Source of the DNA: a virus
Strand: one strand, 5' to 3'
Virus record (IMG/VR): IMGVR_UViG_3300040770_000151
DNA length: 64,000 bases
Shown here: positions 8,543 to 58,137 of the stretch, piece after piece
Position numbering within the stretch: the stretch's first letter is position 1
Layout: each line of letters opens with the position of its first letter
The notes under the pieces: generated by a model
What the model saw: the letters and a program-made list of their open reading frames with translations, nothing else
Told to the model about the DNA's origin: nothing
Database searches by the model: none
Program-made: the position numbers and the translations under genes

Positions 8543-9919
8543 TTATAAATTAGCTTCATTAATTACTCCCTCGCTTATATCGTCAATTCTCTTTTTACCG
8601 CTATTTAACCAAACAACATCCATACCATCCTCATTTAGTGTCTCGTATTTAAAAGCAGTACGCATTTCATTTGGTGTTAAAGGTAGTTTATCCAGCCACT
8701 CAACCATTGATACCATATCATCCTGCATTTCTGGCAATTCCGTAACATCCCATTCTATAACTGCATTTTCATAACCTTTGAAACGTTTAATAAAGTTTTT
8801 GTTTAAACTATCTTGCAATATTATTAAATCGGGTTGTATATCGTTCGTTATTAACTCTTTTCTTGCATCGTTTGAATCTGTTTTAGCTAATGATCCTCCA
8901 CTTTTTTCGCCTAACAATTCTTTTGGGTAATTAAGAACATTACAAATCGTATTTCTATCCCATTGTAAGTAATCAAATGGTTTAAGTTCGTCAGTTGTTA
9001 AGGCTATTCTTTGAAAACCGACCTCAACACTAGATGCGCCAATTTTACCAAGTCTTTCCGCATCGTTGTCTTGTTCGATTAACTTTTCTTTTAACGAATT
9101 AGCTTGATCTTGTGTTAATGGAGCACCCTTACCAAATAAGAAGCCATACGCACCACTATTCTGCATCATTTTGATATTGTTATCAATAGCACTATTTTGT
9201 ATATTGATATTACGCAAAGCGGCTTGTAATGGCGAATGACCGTATAAATGCGAACCTTGTGTGTCAAAGTTTGGGTTAGGGTATTTTATATGAATTACGT
9301 TATCAGCACTAAACTCTGTGTAAGTATTACCCTCTGTTAGAATATAGTGAGAAACAGGACTTTCAACGCTTAACATGTCAGCGTTAGGTTTTAATACTAT
9401 TTCAATTAAATGACTAGGTAAAACGTAAACTAATAAAGGAACGCCCGCATTCATTCCATCCTCTGGAGTAACAAAATAAATATAACAGTTTCCTGTTATT
9501 TTCATATAAGTCTTATACAATGCAAATATATCGCTCCAAGTTTGAGTTGGATTTGGTTGCTCTAATGGAAATGGTAAAGTTTCATCGCTATAAGCTTTTG
9601 TTTGTAGCTTTATTTGCTTAACAAATTGATTTAATGATAATGTACCGTTAGTAGCTTGATTAAGTTGTTTCAGGTCGTAATATGACTTTTTATCACTAAC
9701 TTTTTTTATTGAATAAGGAACGGAAACAGTTTTTAGTGATTGCTTATTGATAATCGAATAAACATCAGGATTAATATTATATCCTTTTTCTAAGTAAGTT
9801 TTATTATTCTGATCGTATTTAGTACTTGCGCCACCTAACAATTGATAAAAAGCACGGTTAAAAGCATTTACTTCCGATTGTTTATTTCTGTTAAAAAAGT
9901 TTTTAAAAATGTTTGCCAT
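8543..9919 (-). CDS. Portal protein (HK97-type)
   Basis: TGNCY, VIHIKYPNP...LYGHSPLQAA motifs; follows TerL. Confidence 0.9.
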   Translation of the reverse strand: MANIFKNFFNRNKQSEVNAFNRAFYQLLGGASTKYDQNNKTYLEKGYNINPDVYSIINKQSLKTVSVPYSIKKVSDKKSYYDLKQLNQATNGTLSLNQFVKQIKLQTKAYSDETLPFPLEQPNPTQTWSDIFALYKTYMKITGNCYIYFVTPEDGMNAGVPLLVYVLPSHLIEIVLKPNADMLSVESPVSHYILTEGNTYTEFSADNVIHIKYPNPNFDTQGSHLYGHSPLQAALRNINIQNSAIDNNIKMMQNSGAYGFLFGKGAPLTQDQANSLKEKLIEQDNDAERLGKIGASSVEVGFQRIALTTDELKPFDYLQWDRNTICNVLNYPKELLGEKSGGSLAKTDSNDARKELITNDIQPDLIILQDSLNKNFIKRFKGYENAVIEWDVTELPEMQDDMVSMVEWLDKLPLTPNEMRTAFKYETLNEDGMDVVWLNSGKKRIDDISEGVINEANL

Positions 9920-10521: not shown

Positions 10522-11862
10522 TCAAACTATAAAAAAAGATTGTCGGAACTCGAAATACATACGCATCATCAAAGCATCTGAATAATCGGGTGATCTACCT
10601 ATTAACTCTTTTACCTTTTCTTTACTCATTATTTGTAACTTACCATCACTATCAATCTTATCTCTTTTTACTTGCTCTAATTCTTTAGTAATATCATCAA
10701 CTATTGAATTTTCTTTGCAATTTACGTAAATTAAATTTAACTGTATTAATTCAGCTAATTTGTAGTAGCATTGTGTTTTAAGGTTTTGATATTGTACTAT
10801 TACATTTTCAACTGGTAATGGTTTTGAATTATTTATAAATCCTTTACATCGTAACATATCAACTACACCGCCACCTACTCCATCTTCATCGGCTATTATA
10901 TTATTCAAAGGTACTGAATGTTTAATAGATAAATCTTTTATAGCTTTTACGGTTTCAATTATACTAGATTTGGCTAACGAAAATATCTCGACCACCCTAA
11001 AACCACTCCAAACCATTATAACCATTTTATCACTACCAAAACGGGCAATATCGGCACTAATATACTTTTCTCCGTGTTGTATAAAATCGTTTGTAAATAT
11101 GTTTTGTATATTTTCGTAATCAATAAGTTTTGCGGGGTCATTATCATATTCCCAATTGCCATAATACAAACGTTGTTTTGAATTGTCATCAAGTGACAAA
11201 AGAGAATCTAAGTATGATTGTGGTAAATGTGGATTATCAGTTGGTAATGCTTGAATAAACTTTTTGTCATTATCAATTTTACCGTTTTTATCTTTTAAAT
11301 AAAACTGAGCATAAACCCAATTTTTAGCAGGGTTACAAGTTCCTAACATTTTAGGCGTTATATCTAATTGCTTTATTTTATAACGAATCCTAGACTTAAC
11401 AATTTGCCACGCTTTATAAGTGATTTGGTTACACTCATCAATAAAAGCCCCTGTAATTTCTAACGAACCTAAACTATCAAAGTTAGGATCACTTGGATAA
11501 GCATATAAATCTTTTAATAAAATTTCGCTTCCATTAGTCCAATAGATAACTCCTGCTTGTGCATTATAATTAAATTGACTTGTTATTTTTAACAAAGTAG
11601 TTTGTTCAAAGAAAGTATTTAAAGTGGTTTCTTTTAATGCTTTTAGTTTTGATCTACCCATTAACCAACGAGTGCCAGGATATGTCTGACATTGTTCAAT
11701 TAACCAAAGCACACCTAAAGCACTTTTGCCACCACCAGCTGCTCCAAAAATTCACCCCTCAAACTTTCGTAAGAGGGGTTAATGTCCACCATATATCACC
11801 TCTTTAGTTTCTGTATCTTTGAGGTAATACACAGCGTTTTCTTGTTTATTTAATAGTTTCAA
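10522..11862 (-). CDS. terL: Terminase large subunit, interrupted by a 42-nt insert (11743-11784); 432 aa if bypassed
   Basis: TTG start 6 nt after the terS stop gives MKLLNKQ...VIYGG|AAGGGKS once the insert is skipped; downstream FIDE Walker B, CNP motif, DIARFGSD nuclease, DYSDALMM. Confidence 0.88.
11743..11784 (-). other. Intervening hairpin element in terL (candidate ribosomal bypass gap)
   Basis: GGA[CAT TAA CCC CTC TTA CGA AAG TTT GAG GGG TGA ATT TTT GGA]GCA; stem ACCCCTC/GAGGGGT with GAAA loop. Confidence 0.8.
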
Positions 11863-11868
11863 ATTATA

Positions 11869-12237
11869 TTAATTTGGTTTCACTCCATTACCTAGAGAAA
11901 TAACGTTTATTTGTTCGCCTTTTGTAGTGTGGTCGATGTGTTGCATAGACAAAGCACGTCTTTCATCGTCGGTTGCAATTAGTTTATACAAAGCAAGTAT
12001 TTCTGCTGCTTTTTCTCCTTCACCTAACTTTTTACGTAGTTTTAATTTAGTTCTAATCTTATTACCATCAAGTAATTCTTTTATATAGTTAAGTTCGTTA
12101 GAATCAATTTTAAAATAGTCGTAAAACGTTGGTTTGCTAATTGGTAAAAAAGAAATAACATCTTCAATAAAATACAAGTTTTCTGTTTCTATTGATGATA
12201 TTGCTAGGTTATATATTTCTTCTTTATTATATGCCAT
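11869..12237 (-). CDS. terS: Terminase small subunit
   Basis: HTH-like ISKPTFYDYF, C-terminal HIDHTTKGEQI; directly upstream of terL. Confidence 0.8.
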   Translation of the reverse strand: MAYNKEEIYNLAISSIETENLYFIEDVISFLPISKPTFYDYFKIDSNELNYIKELLDGNKIRTKLKLRKKLGEGEKAAEILALYKLIATDDERRALSMQHIDHTTKGEQINVISLGNGVKPN

Positions 12238-12639
12238 TTGTGTTTTTATTATTCACAAATTTACAAAAAAAACCCGCTTAAATTACTAAACGGGTTAAAA
12301 AAATATCCAAAACCAAAAAACTAAAAAATTATGAATTACAAATATAACTATTTATTTCTTTACTTTCCAAAAACCTACTGTGTTTTTGTCTCTATGTATT
12401 ATAAAAAAACTATTGAAACAAAAGTGTGCTACCTCATTTAATCCTTTATAGTTTAATACTTCAATTTGATTGGCATTTTTATTATCTAATCCGTAAGTTG
12501 TTATTTTATATCCTGGTTTCATTTCAATAAGTATTTAGTTGGTTTAATATCTTTAAATTCCTTTGCTAATTGTTTAGCTTCTTGTTTTAATCTATAACTT
12601 TCCTCAAAGAATGATTCTCTTTGCTCTACAGGTGTTTTT

Positions 12640-12879
12640 TTAGTTTGTCTCATTAAATCTTCTTTTTAAGTCTAATTGATTCTTTTTAAATCTTTTCTTA
12701 ATTAAATAACCGTTGAACTCGAAAAATCTTCCTAGAATTTCTGAAATATGTTCTATTACTTTATCAAATGATTCGTTTGCATAGAAATTACCTGTTTTCT
12801 TGTTCTTACAAATATAATAGTTTGCTATTATTTTTATTTCAAAACGTTTACGGATTTGTTTTAATAATTTTGCTTTCAT
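12640..12879 (-). CDS. Hypothetical protein
   Basis: ORF track. Confidence 0.55.
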   Translation of the reverse strand: MKAKLLKQIRKRFEIKIIANYYICKNKKTGNFYANESFDKVIEHISEILGRFFEFNGYLIKKRFKKNQLDLKRRFNETN

Positions 12880-13376
12880 AACTGTATACTTAAACCTATT
12901 TTAAAGCCGTTAAACGTATCAACTCCCGCAAAAGCTCCAATATCATCACTAATCGAATATTGAGCGTTAAATCCAGTTAAAGGCACAAAAATAAGCTTGT
13001 CGTTCTTATGATATGCTATTCCGTTATCTTCAAAGTTTCTCATTTGACCATATAATCCTGCGCCGCCTGTAAATGATATTCTAAATGAACCTAAGTAACC
13101 AAAACTAGCTACGCCATACAAACTACACCATTCCTCTTTTGCTACTCCTGTGGTGTGTTTTAATTCATCAGGTGTTATGTGTTTTCCTGCCCATTCACCA
13201 CGTGTTAATGAATTTTTTAATGTTCCACTAAATCCAGCTCCAAAATAATTATCATTTTCTGTTTTGATTATCATTTCCGCTCCTGCCAAGTTTTGACTTG
13301 CTACAAAATAATGCTGCATTACTTGTTGGCTATATCCCATTAAAGGGAATAATAGTAATAATATTAATTTTTTCAT
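12876..13376 (-). CDS. Secreted, outer-membrane beta-barrel-like protein
   Basis: Sec signal MKKLILLLLFPLMGYSQ, alternating beta strands; paralog at 47976. Confidence 0.6.
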   Translation of the reverse strand: MKKLILLLLFPLMGYSQQVMQHYFVASQNLAGAEMIIKTENDNYFGAGFSGTLKNSLTRGEWAGKHITPDELKHTTGVAKEEWCSLYGVASFGYLGSFRISFTGGAGLYGQMRNFEDNGIAYHKNDKLIFVPLTGFNAQYSISDDIGAFAGVDTFNGFKIGLSIQL

Positions 13377-13786
13377 AATTTCTCTATTTTATATCCTAAT
13401 TTATCAGCTAGTTCTTGTAATTGTTTTACTTCTGGATTAATTGTCTTTTTTACTTTTGCATCATGAATTCGTATCCAAGATGTGCCGTCAAAATATTTGA
13501 TTTCTATACTTTCCCATTCTTCATCCTCCACAATATCCAAAGCATCTAAAAATATTGTTCTTTCAAATGTTTCGTAGACTGTTCTATTTGAATTTGATAA
13601 ATCATCATTGTTAATATTTGAAACTAAACCTAATCTATCACAGTAATTAGTAGTTAAATAACAATAATTTTTAAAATTTAGTATATTAAAAACGCTTTCA
13701 ATCAAATCCTTTACGCTATCCCAATCCTCTTGAGTTGCTTTCATTGCTATTGCTCTCATAATTTTATATTTAATTTGTTTGCCCAA
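13373..13786 (-). CDS. Hypothetical protein (paralog 48637)
   Basis: AIAMKATQ..WDSVKDL...NPEVKQLQELADKLGYKI shared. Confidence 0.7.
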   Translation of the reverse strand: MGKQIKYKIMRAIAMKATQEDWDSVKDLIESVFNILNFKNYCYLTTNYCDRLGLVSNINNDDLSNSNRTVYETFERTIFLDALDIVEDEEWESIEIKYFDGTSWIRIHDAKVKKTINPEVKQLQELADKLGYKIEKL

Positions 13787-25106: not shown

Positions 25107-25361
25107 CTATAAGTATTGGTTTAAAATTTCAATTCTTAACAAGTTTTGGTCGTGTTCTATTTTGCCAAATGTTTGAACATATTGTTCAATAGATGATAAT
25201 TGTTTTAATTGCCAAATCTTGTAATTAAGTCTTTCAGTTTGTGATTTAACTTGATCTTTTAGTATTTCAAGTTCATCAATTACTATTGGTTCGTTTACTT
25301 CAATTTCGTTTGCTGGGTGCATACTGTTGTTTAATCCTAAATAATATTCGTCGTAATTCAT
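25107..25361 (-). CDS. First leftward early gene (paralog 57275)
   Basis: MNYD.YYLG.NNSMHPANEIEV shared. Confidence 0.7.
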   Translation of the reverse strand: MNYDEYYLGLNNSMHPANEIEVNEPIVIDELEILKDQVKSQTERLNYKIWQLKQLSSIEQYVQTFGKIEHDQNLLRIEILNQYL

Positions 25362-25389
25362 AATTTTGTGTTTTAAATGATTAATATTT

Positions 25390-25480
25390 TTGACAAAGAT
25401 AAAGCTAACTTCGACAAAAACAAGTTAAAAAAATGTTAAAATTTAAAAGTAATGTATAAATATATTATCTTTGACAAAAA
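25390..25480. promoter_or_regulatory. Divergent promoter pair, unit A
   Basis: Bacteroidota -7 boxes TATCTTTG at 25395-25402 (minus) and 25466-25473 (plus); TT(T/C)GACAAA repeats. Confidence 0.75.
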
Positions 25481-25495
25481 ATAAAACATAACATT

Positions 25496-25789
25496 ATGAA
25501 CAAAGCATTTACAAAGTCAAAAGAATTAATACTTGACGAACATTACAAAATAATTTCAGATAGTGATAATGGTGTTGTTCTAGTTTTTCAAACAACTAGA
25601 GTTAATAAAAAAGATGAAACAGTACCACACGAGGAACTAATGTATTATCCAAGAATAGCACAAGCATTAAGACATTATTCTAATATGGTAATTAATAACT
25701 CTGAAAGTTTAGATGATTGTATTTATAAATCAGAATCGGTTTATAACTTAATAAAAAGACTAGACAAAGAATTTAAACAGTTTAATTAG
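25496..25789 (+). CDS. First rightward early gene (paralog 57659)
   Basis: Highly similar duplicate in unit B. Confidence 0.75.
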   Translation: MNKAFTKSKELILDEHYKIISDSDNGVVLVFQTTRVNKKDETVPHEELMYYPRIAQALRHYSNMVINNSESLDDCIYKSESVYNLIKRLDKEFKQFN

Positions 25790-25897
25790 TAATTATGATA
25801 AGACCAATATTTTTATTACTAACAATATTTTTAGTAATATATCAAGATAAAATAACGCTATGTATGTGGCTTATTGGATTAGTAGGGTATTTAAGTT

Positions 25898-27102: not shown

Positions 27103-27175
27103 GGAAACGTAGCAAAGATGGTCTATGCGGAGGACTGAAAATCCTTAGATGTTGGTTCGATACCAACCGTTTCCA
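27103..27175 (+). tRNA. trnF: tRNA-Phe (GAA)
   Basis: Acceptor GGAAACG/CGTTTCC-A, anticodon arm GAGGA-CTGAAAA-TCCTT, T arm GTTGG-TTCGATA-CCAAC; no encoded CCA. Confidence 0.9.
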
Positions 27176-27289
27176 CGAATGCAGTTCGATTCTGCTCGTT
27201 GACCGAGATTATGGTAAAGTCCGATGCGTGGTTCAATTCCACCGTTACGAAAGTAAACTGGGTAAACGGAGGTCTTTTTTAATAGCTTA

Positions 27290-45866: not shown

Positions 45867-47069
45867 TTAATCTAATCCACTTGTATATATTTGCTCTACA
45901 ACCGCATAAGTTCCAGCATCATTAATGTGATCCAAACCACTCGTCTTGTCAGGTAGTCCATTGTTGTATGTTTGTTGACTCAAAGCTTCCGAGTAGTTGG
46001 GGCACATTTCCAAATTTACAAAATATTTTCCATCTTCCAACGCTTTATTTACAGAGCGAACACGATTTAATATTTCAGGGTTTTTTCTTCTAATTGTTAC
46101 AATAAAATTATACTTTTCATCTATAATAATATCATAATCAGAAAGTCCTGCTGTATTTCTGTTTCTACAACTTGCATCAGGGTTAATCTCTATTTGATTA
46201 CGTGGGTATTTTAATCTTATAGAATCACATAAATCAAACGTATCATACATCTTAACAAATTCATCAACTGCGATTAATTGACCATTACGGATAACGTGTA
46301 TAATTGCGTGCATATTGCTAACGTTAAAATCCATCCCAATATAAAGATTTTCGTTTAGGTCAACAATAGCGTTACTATTATGTAATTCTCTGTTATAAGA
46401 CTTGTAAACTGATCCGCTTGTAAGGTTGCAAAACTCCCCATTAATATACGCGGTTAACTCTTCAATAGTGTATTGAGCCGTTAAAGTAGCAATATAATCT
46501 TCTGGAAGATACGGGTTGTCTAAAGTTTTGGCGCGTATTAAATGTTTTTCGTCCGTCTTCTCTTTAACTGAAAAATTATAAAGGAAATTAAAACCCTCTG
46601 GAGTGCTAACTAAATCTATTGCGTTCTTTTTACCTGCTGGGTCTATTTGCCTATTACGCGCGATAATTTTATTGAATACTGCCTTTGCCTTACCTTTAGG
46701 CAAAATATCAATCTCATCAATTATAGCGTAAAAAGTTTCGTAACCTACTATAGTCTCAGGCTTAGTCATATTTCTAAGTAAAATACTCCCGTATTTAGTC
46801 CTAAACACCTTTTCGCTTGAATTGTATTTGTATGCTATACTATGGTCTTCAAAGAATTGTTGAAACCTTGGCACTGCAATATCGTTTATAAGTGGGTAGT
46901 TTGGTAGATAGTACCCTACGTTTAAGTTAGGTGGTGTAGTAATTAGTTTAACAACTGCCTTACTTACCGCTGCTTCTGTCTTACCAGATCCAAAACCAGC
47001 TACTAATACAGTGTGCTTAGCATCTGAAAAAATAAATTCCTCTTGATGCACTAATAGCTTAAGTTCCAT
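45867..47069 (-). CDS. terL: Terminase large subunit, unit B (uninterrupted)
   Basis: VAGFGSGKT Walker A, IIDE Walker B, GMDFN, DHINDA. Confidence 0.9.
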   Translation of the reverse strand: MELKLLVHQEEFIFSDAKHTVLVAGFGSGKTEAAVSKAVVKLITTPPNLNVGYYLPNYPLINDIAVPRFQQFFEDHSIAYKYNSSEKVFRTKYGSILLRNMTKPETIVGYETFYAIIDEIDILPKGKAKAVFNKIIARNRQIDPAGKKNAIDLVSTPEGFNFLYNFSVKEKTDEKHLIRAKTLDNPYLPEDYIATLTAQYTIEELTAYINGEFCNLTSGSVYKSYNRELHNSNAIVDLNENLYIGMDFNVSNMHAIIHVIRNGQLIAVDEFVKMYDTFDLCDSIRLKYPRNQIEINPDASCRNRNTAGLSDYDIIIDEKYNFIVTIRRKNPEILNRVRSVNKALEDGKYFVNLEMCPNYSEALSQQTYNNGLPDKTSGLDHINDAGTYAVVEQIYTSGLD

Positions 47070-47575: not shown

Positions 47576-47971
47576 TCATAATAATTCTGGATTTTCGTAA
47601 ATATTTCCGATTACTTGATAATCATTTACTTTAAAATATAAATCATGACTAACTCCATTAGCTCCTAACCATTCATTTTTTTTAGCAGTATACCATTGCG
47701 TATAAATAAATTTTCCATAAGAAAAACTAACTTTAGCTAATATTTCTCCATAAACATTTTGCATTTTAATTATATCCCCTTCATAAATATCTACTCCGTT
47801 TTTGTCTTTTAGTCCTGTGAACTGCATTATAGCCTCAAATTCATTTATATCTAATTTCAAAGCAGTTCCAATTCCTACTATTACTTTTATGTATTTGTTA
47901 CAAAATGAAAAAACTTCACGCATTTCTTTTTCTTTCTTTAAATATGCTCTAAACTTAATTTCTCTACTCAT
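47576..47971 (-). CDS. YopX family protein
   Basis: REIKFRA, MQFTGLKDKNG.DIYEGDI, VIGNIYENPEL. Confidence 0.9.
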   Translation of the reverse strand: MSREIKFRAYLKKEKEMREVFSFCNKYIKVIVGIGTALKLDINEFEAIMQFTGLKDKNGVDIYEGDIIKMQNVYGEILAKVSFSYGKFIYTQWYTAKKNEWLGANGVSHDLYFKVNDYQVIGNIYENPELL

Positions 47972-47975
47972 AATT

Positions 47976-48476
47976 TTATAATTGAATTGTTAAACCGAAT
48001 TTTAATTTATTAAACGTATCAACTCCAGCGAATACACCAATATCTTTTGTAATTGAGCACTGAGCATTAAGTCCAACTAATGGCACAAGTATCAATTTAT
48101 CGTTCTTGTGATACTCATAATCATTAATTTTAAAGTTACGCATCTGACCGTATAACCCTGCGCCACCTGTAAATGATATTCTAAAAGCACCTAAGTAACC
48201 AAAACTTGCTACACCATACAATGAGCACCATTCTTCTTTTGCCACTCCTGTTGTGTATTTCATTTCGTCGGATGTTATATGCTTACCTGCCCATTCACCT
48301 TTAGTCAATGAATTTTTTAATGTTCCGCTAAATCCTGCGCCAAAATAATTATCATTTTTAGTTTTTAAAATCATTTCCGCCCCTGCTAAATTTTGACTTG
48401 CTATAAAGTAATGTTGAATTACTTCTTGACTAAATCCAATCATCGGGAATAATAGTATTAATATTAATTTTTTCAT
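47976..48476 (-). CDS. Secreted beta-barrel-like protein (paralog 12876)
   Basis: Signal peptide; high similarity to 12876. Confidence 0.6.
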   Translation of the reverse strand: MKKLILILLFPMIGFSQEVIQHYFIASQNLAGAEMILKTKNDNYFGAGFSGTLKNSLTKGEWAGKHITSDEMKYTTGVAKEEWCSLYGVASFGYLGAFRISFTGGAGLYGQMRNFKINDYEYHKNDKLILVPLVGLNAQCSITKDIGVFAGVDTFNKLKFGLTIQL

Positions 48477-48636
48477 AACTTCTCTATATTTTTTAAATCA
48501 ATCAAAAAACCATCAACAAATTTTTTTACAGTAATAAATCTTTCTAAATCTGCTTTCGTTTGTTTAATGTTAATTAGATCTTTTAATACATTTGATTGTG
48601 TTTCTGTTTTCTTTATAAGTAATCTTAATTCTTCTT

Positions 48637-57274: not shown

Positions 57275-57523
57275 CTATTTTAATTTTTCTATTAATCTTC
57301 TAACTTTTCCAGCTAAACCACTATCAACTGATTCTAAACAATAAAGTATATGGTTTGCTTCTTCTATAATATTTCTTTGCATTTCGTTAAATACTTCAAC
57401 ATAACCGTTGTCGTATGCTTCTGTTAAATTTATAATAGTTTCTACTATTTCAGCATCTACTTCAATCTCGTTTGCAGGATGCATACTGTTGTTCGTTCCT
57501 AAATAATTGTCGTCGTAATTCAT
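57275..57523 (-). CDS. First leftward early gene (paralog 25107)
   Basis: N-terminal similarity. Confidence 0.7.
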   Translation of the reverse strand: MNYDDNYLGTNNSMHPANEIEVDAEIVETIINLTEAYDNGYVEVFNEMQRNIIEEANHILYCLESVDSGLAGKVRRLIEKLK

Positions 57524-57549
57524 AATAATTTTTATTTAAATGATTAATA

Positions 57550-57645
57550 TTTTTTACAAAGATACATTTGTTTTTGACAAATCAATGTTAAAATTATGTT
57601 AAAAAGGAAAAGTAATGTATAAAAGCGCTATCTTTGACAAAAAAT
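57550..57645. promoter_or_regulatory. Divergent promoter pair, unit B
   Basis: TATCTTTG at 57557-57564 (minus) and 57629-57636 (plus). Confidence 0.75.
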
Positions 57646-57658
57646 AAATCACAACAAT

Positions 57659-57952
57659 ATGAACAAAGCATTTACAAAATCAAAAGAAATAGTATTAGAT
57701 GAAAATTACAAAATTATTCCTGATACTGACAATGGTGTTGTTTTAGTTTTTAAAACAAGTAGAGTTAATAAAAAAGATGAAACAGTACCGCACGAGGAAT
57801 TGTTTTATTACCCTAGAATTTCACAAGCACTAAAGCATTATGCAGATAAAACAATTAATAATTCTGAGAGTTTAGATGATTGTATTTATAAATCAGAATC
57901 AGTTTATAATTTGATAAAAAGATTAGACCAACAATTTAAACAATTTAATTAG
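57659..57952 (+). CDS. First rightward early gene (paralog 25496)
   Basis: Similarity. Confidence 0.75.
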   Translation: MNKAFTKSKEIVLDENYKIIPDTDNGVVLVFKTSRVNKKDETVPHEELFYYPRISQALKHYADKTINNSESLDDCIYKSESVYNLIKRLDQQFKQFN

Positions 57953-57957
57953 TAAAT

Positions 57958-58137
57958 ATGAAAACCAAGAAACACAAAATAGTAAATGGTAAATGGCAAA
58001 TTAAAAACATTTACGACGCTTTACAAGCTAGTTTATTTGATATTTATATAAATACCCATCGTGAATTAGAAACGCCTGCATTAAGGTCTAAAATAACGAA
58101 AGAATACAACTATAAATTTAATTTTACAAACAGATGA
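57958..58137 (+). CDS. Hypothetical protein (59 aa; paralog 25898)
   Basis: Manual ORF MKTKKHKIVNGKWQIKNIYDALQAS. Confidence 0.65.
   Translation: MKTKKHKIVNGKWQIKNIYDALQASLFDIYINTHRELETPALRSKITKEYNYKFNFTNR

Follow-up and report, generated by a model that had tools for sequence, protein, structure and literature searches.

A candidate programmed ribosomal bypass within the terminase P-loop codons of 11b-like Bacteroidota phages and its link to HNH endonucleases

The large terminase gene (terL) present in a stretch of 64,000 nucleotides (nt) of viral DNA (IMG/VR record IMGVR_UViG_3300040770_000151, whose full length is here called the window) is interrupted within its Walker A codons by 42 nt that include two in-frame stop codons and a stable hairpin. 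As judged from the sequence, these 42 nt are probably (with a probability of roughly 0.6) a bypass cassette similar to that of gene 60 of bacteriophage T4, which would be skipped by the ribosome and would shield terL from a homing endonuclease. Twenty-four distinct inserts of 40-45 nt were recovered by scanning IMG/VR, all of them in the Walker A codons of terL from 11b-like phages of the Flavobacterium type, and the odds lean slightly towards these inserts being a second, independently evolved family of programmed hops of 37-42 nt, carried on HNH cassettes that target the terL P-loop of Bacteroidota phages. A gene 60-like analog is favoured because the non-synonymous landing codons are restricted to GUA, which is still able to pair, because the hairpin covaries, and because the inserts are linked to HNH endonuclease genes. 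No published description of a family of terL inserts was found in full-text literature searches.

On the minus strand, the window terL can be read from a TTG (11862-11860) located 6 nt past the terS stop codon, which aligns with the ATG start of the terL genes of related phages. The first 26 codons, MKLLNKQENAVYYLKDTETKEVIYGG, end with a GGA that is followed by CAT, TAA, the hairpin, an in-frame TGA, ATT TTT and a second GGA; past this codon the frame reads GCA GCT GGT GGT GGC AAA AGT (AAGGGKS) and continues with the body of TerL down to position 10522 (Table 1). When the 42 nt are taken out, the motif YGGAAGGGKS is restored and the product has 432 amino acids (aa), i.e., the read-through length minus 14 codons; this length and the unbroken motif are found in 115 of the 120 best database homologs. 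This arrangement had been described in an earlier examination of the DNA letters (the sequence-only reading), with which the sequence agrees exactly, as it does with the claim that the annotated open reading frame (ORF) lacks the Walker A motif. This ORF, of 396 aa, begins with a GTG at 11712, downstream of the P-loop lysine in GKS, and therefore normal ATP binding would be impossible for its product. The protein encoded by the window terL was recognized as a large terminase by Pfam (Terminase_3, PF04466) and by PHROGs (phrog_2). The presence of the insert was confirmed with a public ice-metagenome run, in which a separately assembled contig (word depth 83) spans positions 11651-12100 without differences; no insert-free contig was detected in the same run.

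The 24 inserts were obtained from a scan of IMG/VR for terL genes in which the coding region of the Walker A motif is split by extra bases, leaving the content of the insert free, and from two follow-up scans. The TerL proteins of the inserted genes are 51-86% identical to that of the window. The inserts are located at three positions, all inside seven codons: mostly after Y-G-G-A-A, in one group after Y-G-G-G-A-G-G, and in the window after Y-G-G. Their frequency was estimated as 8 out of 80 in an unbiased set formed by the 80 closest terL loci of IMG/VR. Other searches were less productive. A scan of viral contigs with a pattern based only on the hairpin returned mostly ordinary intergenic terminators and a single new locus (L054), and it was concluded that the shape alone is not diagnostic. 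When the split Walker A pattern was searched in genome and metagenome contig collections, nearly all of the matches listed were due to chance, and a tblastn filter of these listed matches left one terL locus, a duplicate of L054.

The length of the inserts is 40 nt in twelve cases, 41 in two, 42 in four, 43 in four, 44 in one and 45 in one; hence 19 of the 24 are not a multiple of 3 and place the downstream part of TerL in another frame. These lengths bear on the idea that the insert is translated, with its stop codons reassigned and 14 residues added to the protein. In support of this idea, proteins of 446 aa had been called for two relatives (L001, 51-1391, and L002, 84-1424) by reading TAG as Q. 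These two homologs carry a 42-nt insert that also lies in the Walker A motif, two codons away from the position of the window insert, in which GCT is present on both sides, followed by CGA and TAG, and a window-like hairpin in which all the variable pairs covary with those of the window. The public gene calls of both contigs had treated TAG as Gln, which yielded the spurious proteins of 446 aa; coding gaps of this type can pass for stop-codon reassignment. Nevertheless, read-through and an alternative genetic code were refuted for the family, since 19 of the 24 inserts break the frame. Furthermore, the window insert contains both TAA and TGA, and 14 additional residues within GxxxxGKS would destroy the P-loop, so that translation of the insert is hardly credible.

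When the elements were aligned from the take-off codon to the landing codon, a common order became apparent. A codon for Ala or Gly comes first and is separated from a stop, in most cases, by a single variable sense codon; next come the hairpin with its G-rich 3' arm, an A/U tail, and a second Ala or Gly codon followed by G-G-G-K-S. The stop is the second codon after the take-off codon in 16 of the 24 elements and the first one in three; in the other five it is late or absent. The first position of the helix is the third base of the stop, located 5 nt past the take-off codon, and this base covaries with its partner (GC in nine elements, AU in eight and UA in three, corresponding to TAG:C, TAA:T and TAT:A). 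In the alignment of the 24 elements, helix 1 is paired in 97.6% of the cells, and in four of its pairs both bases have changed. Its covariation score amounts to 0.398, as compared with 0.188 for shuffled columns (none of 500 reached the observed value) and with 0.168 at most when the partners were slid. In the window, the core hairpin (26 nt) is formed by 7 base pairs, a UU/UU internal loop, 2 base pairs and a GAAA loop, which is also present in L001 and L054; its folding energy is -15.8 kcal/mol (z = -3.5), and 0.01 occurrences of this motif per window are expected by chance. This is the weakest hairpin of the family, for which the predicted stabilities reach -25.9 kcal/mol, with a median of -20.9. 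The hairpin proposed in the sequence-only reading is supported by the covariation of its core helix, but the outer AUU/AAU pairing is not a conserved feature of the family. In minimum-energy folds the take-off and landing codons appeared to pair with each other; this was discarded as trivial, given that GC is self-complementary.

The G-rich arm (GAGGGG, GGAGG or AGGGGG) is located 5-10 nt ahead of the landing codon, and the same run of G residues doubles as an arm of the stem. The tails have 5-10 nt with a mean A/U content of 86%, and most of them are A-rich, not U-rich. This composition is relevant for the proposal that the hairpin is an internal terminator or attenuator. The window hairpin, together with the run of five T residues that follows it, does score as terminator-like in the terminator scan; however, the A-rich tails of most members do not fit this function, and termination would not restore TerL, which leaves this proposal, as the previous one, with next to no credit. 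It should also be mentioned that a sub-type of the family (L077, 4918-4965; L093, 2118-2163; L080, 794-840; L106 and L111) has TAT in place of the stop and no early stop, and shows a perfect AGGAGG in the 3' arm of the stem; in L077 and L111 two TAA codons are found directly ahead of the landing codon. If these elements are bypassed, the trigger must be other than a stop codon.

The codons at both ends of the elements are related in a characteristic way. The pairs of take-off and landing codons are GCT/GCA in nine elements, GCT/GCT in five, GCC/GCA in three and GCT/GTA in three, and there is one case each of GGA/GGA (the window), GCC/GCT, GGT/GGA and GCG/GCA. Therefore, both codons are synonymous in 21 of the 24 elements, and the remaining three land on GUA. 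The third codon positions differ in 15 of the 24 pairs and the first two are kept; this is unlike what a target-site duplication left behind, or a repeat produced by slippage, would show, and from these sequences the match appears to be at the level of the codon and its tRNA rather than of the nucleotides. The three elements with a GTA landing codon (L097, 1884-1926; L115, 778-820; L460, approx. 1127-1170) have unrelated hairpin sequences, i.e., the C-to-T change is recurrent. According to base-pairing rules, GUA would be the only single-base variant of GCA that can pair at three positions with the UGC anticodon of tRNA-Ala, through a central G.U pair. The sequence-only reading had pointed to related terL genes as the place where matched codons and a covarying hairpin should be sought, and both were found.

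The conservation of the two codons is also informative with regard to a removal of the insert before translation, either at the RNA level, as a micro-intron, or by precise excision or hairpin-promoted deletion of the DNA during lytic growth. A stable hairpin between short repeats is a classic substrate for deletion, and a precise loss would likewise restore the frame. Nevertheless, the boundary sequence is not conserved, the sense codon and the tail vary freely, and the flanking repeat is of only 2 nt in most members, too short for slippage; yet both codons remain Ala or Gly. If the insert were simply excised or spliced out, one of the two codons would be part of the piece that is lost and would drift freely, therefore the maintenance of both is unlike this process. 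Besides, 40 nt is a size far smaller than that of the known self-splicing introns, and a search of the insert against Rfam, with E values up to 1, gave nothing relevant. The insert-free form was not observed at a depth of 83 in the run that contains the window phage, and insert-spanning words are present in an RNA-seq run: in the wetland metatranscriptomic run X22, all the sampled 31-mers across the insert of the commonest allele (L083-type) were detected, which weakly suggests that the insert is retained in RNA. The window's own insert had no match among the public RNA runs. Taken together, removal before translation is considered quite unlikely, and bypass by the ribosome remains the preferred explanation.

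Both segments of terL remain under purifying selection. For the 23 codons upstream of the insert in the inserted genes, the proportion of synonymous differences (pS) is 0.73, near saturation, and that of non-synonymous differences (pN) is 0.18, giving a pN/pS of 0.25; the invariant residues K6, Q7, E8, A10, L14, K15 and D16 are kept. For the body of the protein, the window TerL is 94% identical to that of its closest uninserted relative (L357), with a pN/pS of 0.07. The 26 aa encoded ahead of the insert correspond to native TerL sequence, conserved with or without the insert, and include a KQE..A stretch that, given its position, we take to be the adenine-binding Q-motif region. It could be argued that TerL is made in two parts, i.e., that a 27-aa N-terminal peptide and a C-terminal protein act jointly, or that the C-terminal part made by re-initiation is sufficient. 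In this regard, in the L083 group and in L105 and L116 the loop contains a TTG in frame with the downstream segment, and in the window an ATT codon follows the TGA. In most members, however, the downstream frame is stopped no more than four codons from the landing codon and no start codon is found after this stop. Since in most members this frame has no start codon upstream of GKS, re-initiation cannot supply an intact P-loop; moreover, the P-loop would be severed, and the upstream segment carries the invariant KQE..A stretch. A split or re-initiated TerL is thus very improbable.

Another relevant aspect is the distribution of the inserts and the genes that accompany them. In a TerL tree (a quick IQ-TREE analysis with support from the Shimodaira-Hasegawa-like approximate likelihood ratio test, SH-aLRT), the inserted genes are scattered; parsimony requires 15 state changes, and a minimum of 8 is imposed by the well-supported branches. 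For several inserted genes there are uninserted ones with a near-identical TerL, and one inserted gene is sister to the cultured phage 11b. Where the flanks of two loci are 95-100% identical, only 75-83% identity remains at distances of up to roughly 100-300 nt from the insert, and from this local dip it is inferred that the insert came with flanking donor DNA, that is, by gene conversion. A covariance model built for the element, run on the window with filters off, scored 41.6 bits with the terL insert and 11.7 with the next best match; in related contigs totalling 754 kb, all the significant matches corresponded to the terL insert, including one element that had been excluded from the training. 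Given that the matches are confined to a single site, a dispersed miniature mobile element (such as byp elements, miniature inverted-repeat transposable elements or repetitive extragenic palindromes) was ruled out; the tiny mobile element that had been considered as an alternative in the sequence-only reading is disfavoured by this result and by the arrival of the inserts in conversion tracts.

The connection with HNH homing endonucleases, missing from the sequence-only reading, became apparent from the neighbourhood of terL. In the uninserted relatives terL and the portal gene are separated by 17-85 nt, and in the window this interval holds a free-standing HNH gene (Table 1); a homolog 44% identical to the window HNH occupies the same place in L054. 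In eight other inserted loci, a gene for a protein of approx. 170 aa, whose HNH_3 domain was confirmed with Pfam, is located between terS and terL. L054 apparently has HNH genes on both sides of terL, since a truncated match to the approx. 170-aa class was detected at 3-125 and a gene with NUMOD4, HNH_3 and AP2 domains at 1555-2124, downstream. In total, an HNH gene adjacent to terL is present in 10 of the 18 inserted loci that could be evaluated versus 3 of 49 uninserted loci (Fisher p = 3e-5, with kinship ignored). The possibility that these genes encode HNH proteins of the packaging type, like gp74 of HK97, which have been described next to terminase genes, was ruled out: no such gene is found beside terL in 46 of the 49 uninserted relatives, including the cultured phage 11b. 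Their sporadic presence and their varying placement, between terS and terL or between terL and the portal gene, are therefore not those of a constant packaging-type HNH.

From these results the following sequence of events can be envisaged. The cassette would have entered terL by gene conversion driven by the endonuclease. In the window, the peptidyl-tRNA(Gly) would leave the GGA codon 26 once the ribosome meets the hairpin and the stop; the ribosome would then slide 39 nt, the same tRNA would pair again with the second GGA, and decoding would restart at GCA to produce the 432-aa TerL. The predicted tryptic junction peptide of the bypassed protein is EVIYGGAAGGGK. The neighbouring HNH enzyme presumably recognises the conserved Walker A DNA, which the insert would split, and a phage with the cassette would be immune; the enzyme would convert insert-free relatives, while the cassette carriers would escape. 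A modest efficiency of bypass could also limit the amount of TerL.

An explanation that shares with bypass the action of the endonuclease is that the insert and the HNH gene form a selfish, disabling cassette that spreads by homing in spite of inactivating terL. The carriers would then persist as defective prophages or would be packaged by the terminase of co-infecting insert-free relatives. Inserted and uninserted alleles with nearly identical TerL proteins co-circulate, no carrier is known among the cultured phages of GenBank, where only uninterrupted relatives (11b and Cellulophaga phi10:1) were found, and the window copy combines a TTG start, a singleton position, the weakest hairpin and a location in a tandem prophage array. 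On the other hand, purifying selection acts on both gene segments. Compensatory changes in the hairpin and a landing codon that can still pair are seen across terL genes with 51-86% identity to that of the window, which therefore indicates long-term selection on the insert itself. In addition, insert-spanning 31-mers place the L083-type allele in 20 public runs, which belong to 16 studies of the years 2016 to 2025, a persistence that argues for a viable lineage, and the window phage, present at a word depth of 83, has no insert-free form. Rescue by a second terminase in the window was also considered. The window is formed by two tandem prophage-like units (unit A, 1-29000, and unit B, 29000-64000), and unit B has an intact terL; nevertheless, its product is of another family, with 26% identity to the TerL of unit A over 144 aa, so that complementation is unlikely. 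The view of a dead gene rescued by unit B, contemplated in the sequence-only reading, is thus disfavoured by selection, persistence and this low identity, and a selfish cassette that disables terL is regarded as unlikely.

Several observations weigh against a gene 60-like bypass. The sequence-only reading had proposed a programmed bypass on the model of T4; the inserts of the family, their codons and the covariation are in favour of it, but the geometry differs from that of gene 60, with a sense codon before the stop and a hairpin that starts 5 nt after the take-off codon, leaving the latter outside. The early stop is missing from 5 of the 24 elements. Some codon pairs (GCC/GCA and GGT/GGA) would call for a mismatch at the wobble position or for a tRNA that reads broadly. 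Possible decoys exist as well: in 11 of the 24 elements the stem has a cognate triplet, GCA or GCG, at its 3' foot, and in the window the G-rich arm contains GGG triplets. Shine-Dalgarno pairing is little used by the ribosomes of Bacteroidota, therefore a role of this kind for the G-rich arm is doubtful. With regard to the endonuclease, an adjacent HNH gene is absent from 8 of the 18 inserted loci, and the statistic for the association ignores phylogeny. The absence of a cultured carrier in GenBank has been noted above, and the support from RNA libraries consists of k-mers from one run in which DNA carry-over is possible. No further element was found in IMG/VR at the Y-G-G position of the window, which is a singleton; a scan for other inserts after Y-G-G gave 25 matches, all of them due to chance and none from relatives. 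Finally, the window copy could be a recent variant with poor or no function, because of its singleton position, its weakest hairpin, its TTG start, its location in a prophage, and its terminator-like hairpin followed by a T-run.

The best studied counterpart of these elements is the family formed by T4 gene 60 and MobA, in which the codons are matched with wobble allowed, and for which a codon that is either a stop or hungry, a stem-loop of high stability (the loop being UUCG or GNRA), a mini-Shine-Dalgarno or purine stretch with an A/U spacer before the landing site, and an HNH endonuclease have been described (10.1101/2022.08.31.505936). The same work indicated that the insertions are sporadic and recent, that the gap is kept after the loss of the endonuclease, and that the insert blocks self-nicking; in 2022 its discoverers termed the gene 60 cassette unique (Manning & Atkins, 10.1101/2022.08.31.505936). 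As in gene 60, a non-coding block of tens of nt interrupts an essential phage gene where it encodes a highly conserved motif of the enzyme, and the codons are matched with wobble variants, the GGA/GGA of the window being the same as those of T4, with a stop near the take-off codon. Other shared traits are a stable stem-loop, loops of the GNRA type, a purine-rich stretch and an A/U spacer ahead of the landing codon, sporadic gains and losses, and the linkage to a free-standing HNH gene, with gaps that in some cases are kept after its loss.

Along with these similarities there are clear differences. The target is the terL P-loop of 11b-like, siphovirus-type Bacteroidota phages and not topoisomerase II of T4-like myoviruses, and the gap has 37-42 nt versus 50 in gene 60. 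In contrast with gene 60 and MobA, terL is not split into two expressed ORFs and has acquired no N- or C-terminal extensions. Unlike gene 60, the terL inserts usually have a sense codon between the take-off codon and the stop, their stem-loop leaves the take-off codon out and starts 5 nt after it, no nascent peptide derived from the insert would be produced, and the landing match is looser (GUA, GCC/GCA, GGU/GGA). Bypass has been demonstrated for gene 60, whereas for terL it is proposed from the sequence.

Other systems can also be compared. For the terL gene of the Streptomyces phage Hau3, bypassing was proposed and a junction peptide was detected by mass spectrometry in E. coli (PMC10732093). 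As in Hau3, a block that disrupts the frame is found in terL and its flanks are contiguous in relatives; however, the Hau3 blocks are of 10 nt, begin with the rare UUA, for which the sensing of tRNA availability was proposed, are located outside the Walker A motif, and are not accompanied by a homing endonuclease (PMC10732093). The P-loop of TerL in mycobacteriophages hosts inteins (PMC5050341). Similarly to these, the inserts studied here use the Walker A codons as the landing site of elements of the homing type that have to be undone for ATPase function, but inteins are part of the translation product and leave it by protein splicing, and an insert of 40-45 nt, usually frame-breaking, is too short to encode a splicing domain. 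The byp elements of the mitochondria of Magnusiomyces capitatus reportedly have 27-55 nt, are structured, mobile and skipped by the ribosome. Like them, the terL inserts are short and structured with matched take-off and landing codons; nonetheless, byp elements occur in many copies across many genes, and the terL element is confined to one site and moves with flanking DNA by conversion.

The features of the window that are relevant to this work are compiled in Table 1. The overall GC content of the two prophage-like units is about 30%. Colinear blocks shared by their early and lysogeny modules show 72-89% identity (e.g., 12874-13390 with 47974-48490, and 25296-25801 with 57458-57964), and the structural modules are unrelated. 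The only tRNA gene of the window, tRNA-Phe(GAA), is located at 27103-27176 on the plus strand, near the end of unit A by a strand-switch region, and could represent either an attachment site or a tRNA carried by the phage. Just upstream of terS, at 12271-12296 on the minus strand, there is a strong terminator-like hairpin of 11 pairs followed by a T-run, which probably ends the preceding operon. The terS product gave no match in Pfam, and its name is based on its position and on the annotation of phage 11b.

Table 1. Positions in the window of the interrupted terL gene, the parts of its insert and nearby or related genes
Feature	Position	Strand	Basis or remark
terS, small terminase, 122 aa	11869..12237	-	ORF; tblastn match region annotated 'terminase small subunit' in phage 11b
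terL 5' segment, TTG and 25 codons, with conserved KQE..A..YYLKD..TKE..YGG	11785..11862	-	sequence, homolog alignment
Proposed take-off codon GGA (Gly26)	11785..11787	-	last codon shared with YGG|AAGGGKS of homologs; same as the codon at 11743-11745
Sense codon CAT (11784-11782), then stop TAA (11781-11779)	11779..11784	-	sequence
Hairpin A+CCCCTC / UU / AC / GAAA / GU / UU / GAGGGG+T	11754..11779	-	folding, covariation, covariance model
A/U-rich tail TGAATTTTT, including in-frame TGA (11752-11754), from the G-rich stem arm to the landing codon	11746..11754	-	
Proposed landing codon GGA	11743..11745	-	equals the take-off codon; next codon, GCA, resumes AAGGGKS
terL 3' segment: remaining Walker A, ATPase and nuclease domains, stop	10522..11742	-	PF04466, phrog_2
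Free-standing HNH endonuclease gene, NUMOD4 and HNH_3, 158 aa	9935..10411	-	Pfam and PHROG; interval between terL and portal gene
Portal gene (context)	8543..9919	-	PF04860, phrog_12
Large terminase gene of unit B, intact, Terminase_6N/6C type	45867-47069	-	26% identical over 144 aa to TerL of unit A
YopX-domain gene, unit B	47576-47971		

So far, the one well-studied natural paradigm of efficient long-distance hopping is T4 gene 60, together with the homologs found in topoisomerase genes. If the proposal made here is true, bypass in the style of gene 60 would be a recurrent answer to the problem of self-immunity against an endonuclease and not an oddity of T4, and the link between homing endonucleases and recoding would be extended to the terminase P-loop, a site already prone to inteins. 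It would also mean that hopping works with a hairpin downstream of the take-off codon, with a sense codon before the stop, with a landing that tolerates G.U pairs, and in ribosomes that rarely use Shine-Dalgarno sequences. The two dozen variants, which differ in gap length, loop type, stop placement, landing pairing and position, would represent a natural mutational series for the requirements of hopping. Gene callers truncate these terL genes or assign them a wrong genetic code, and as a consequence annotation and completeness are misjudged in about 10% of this group of phages.

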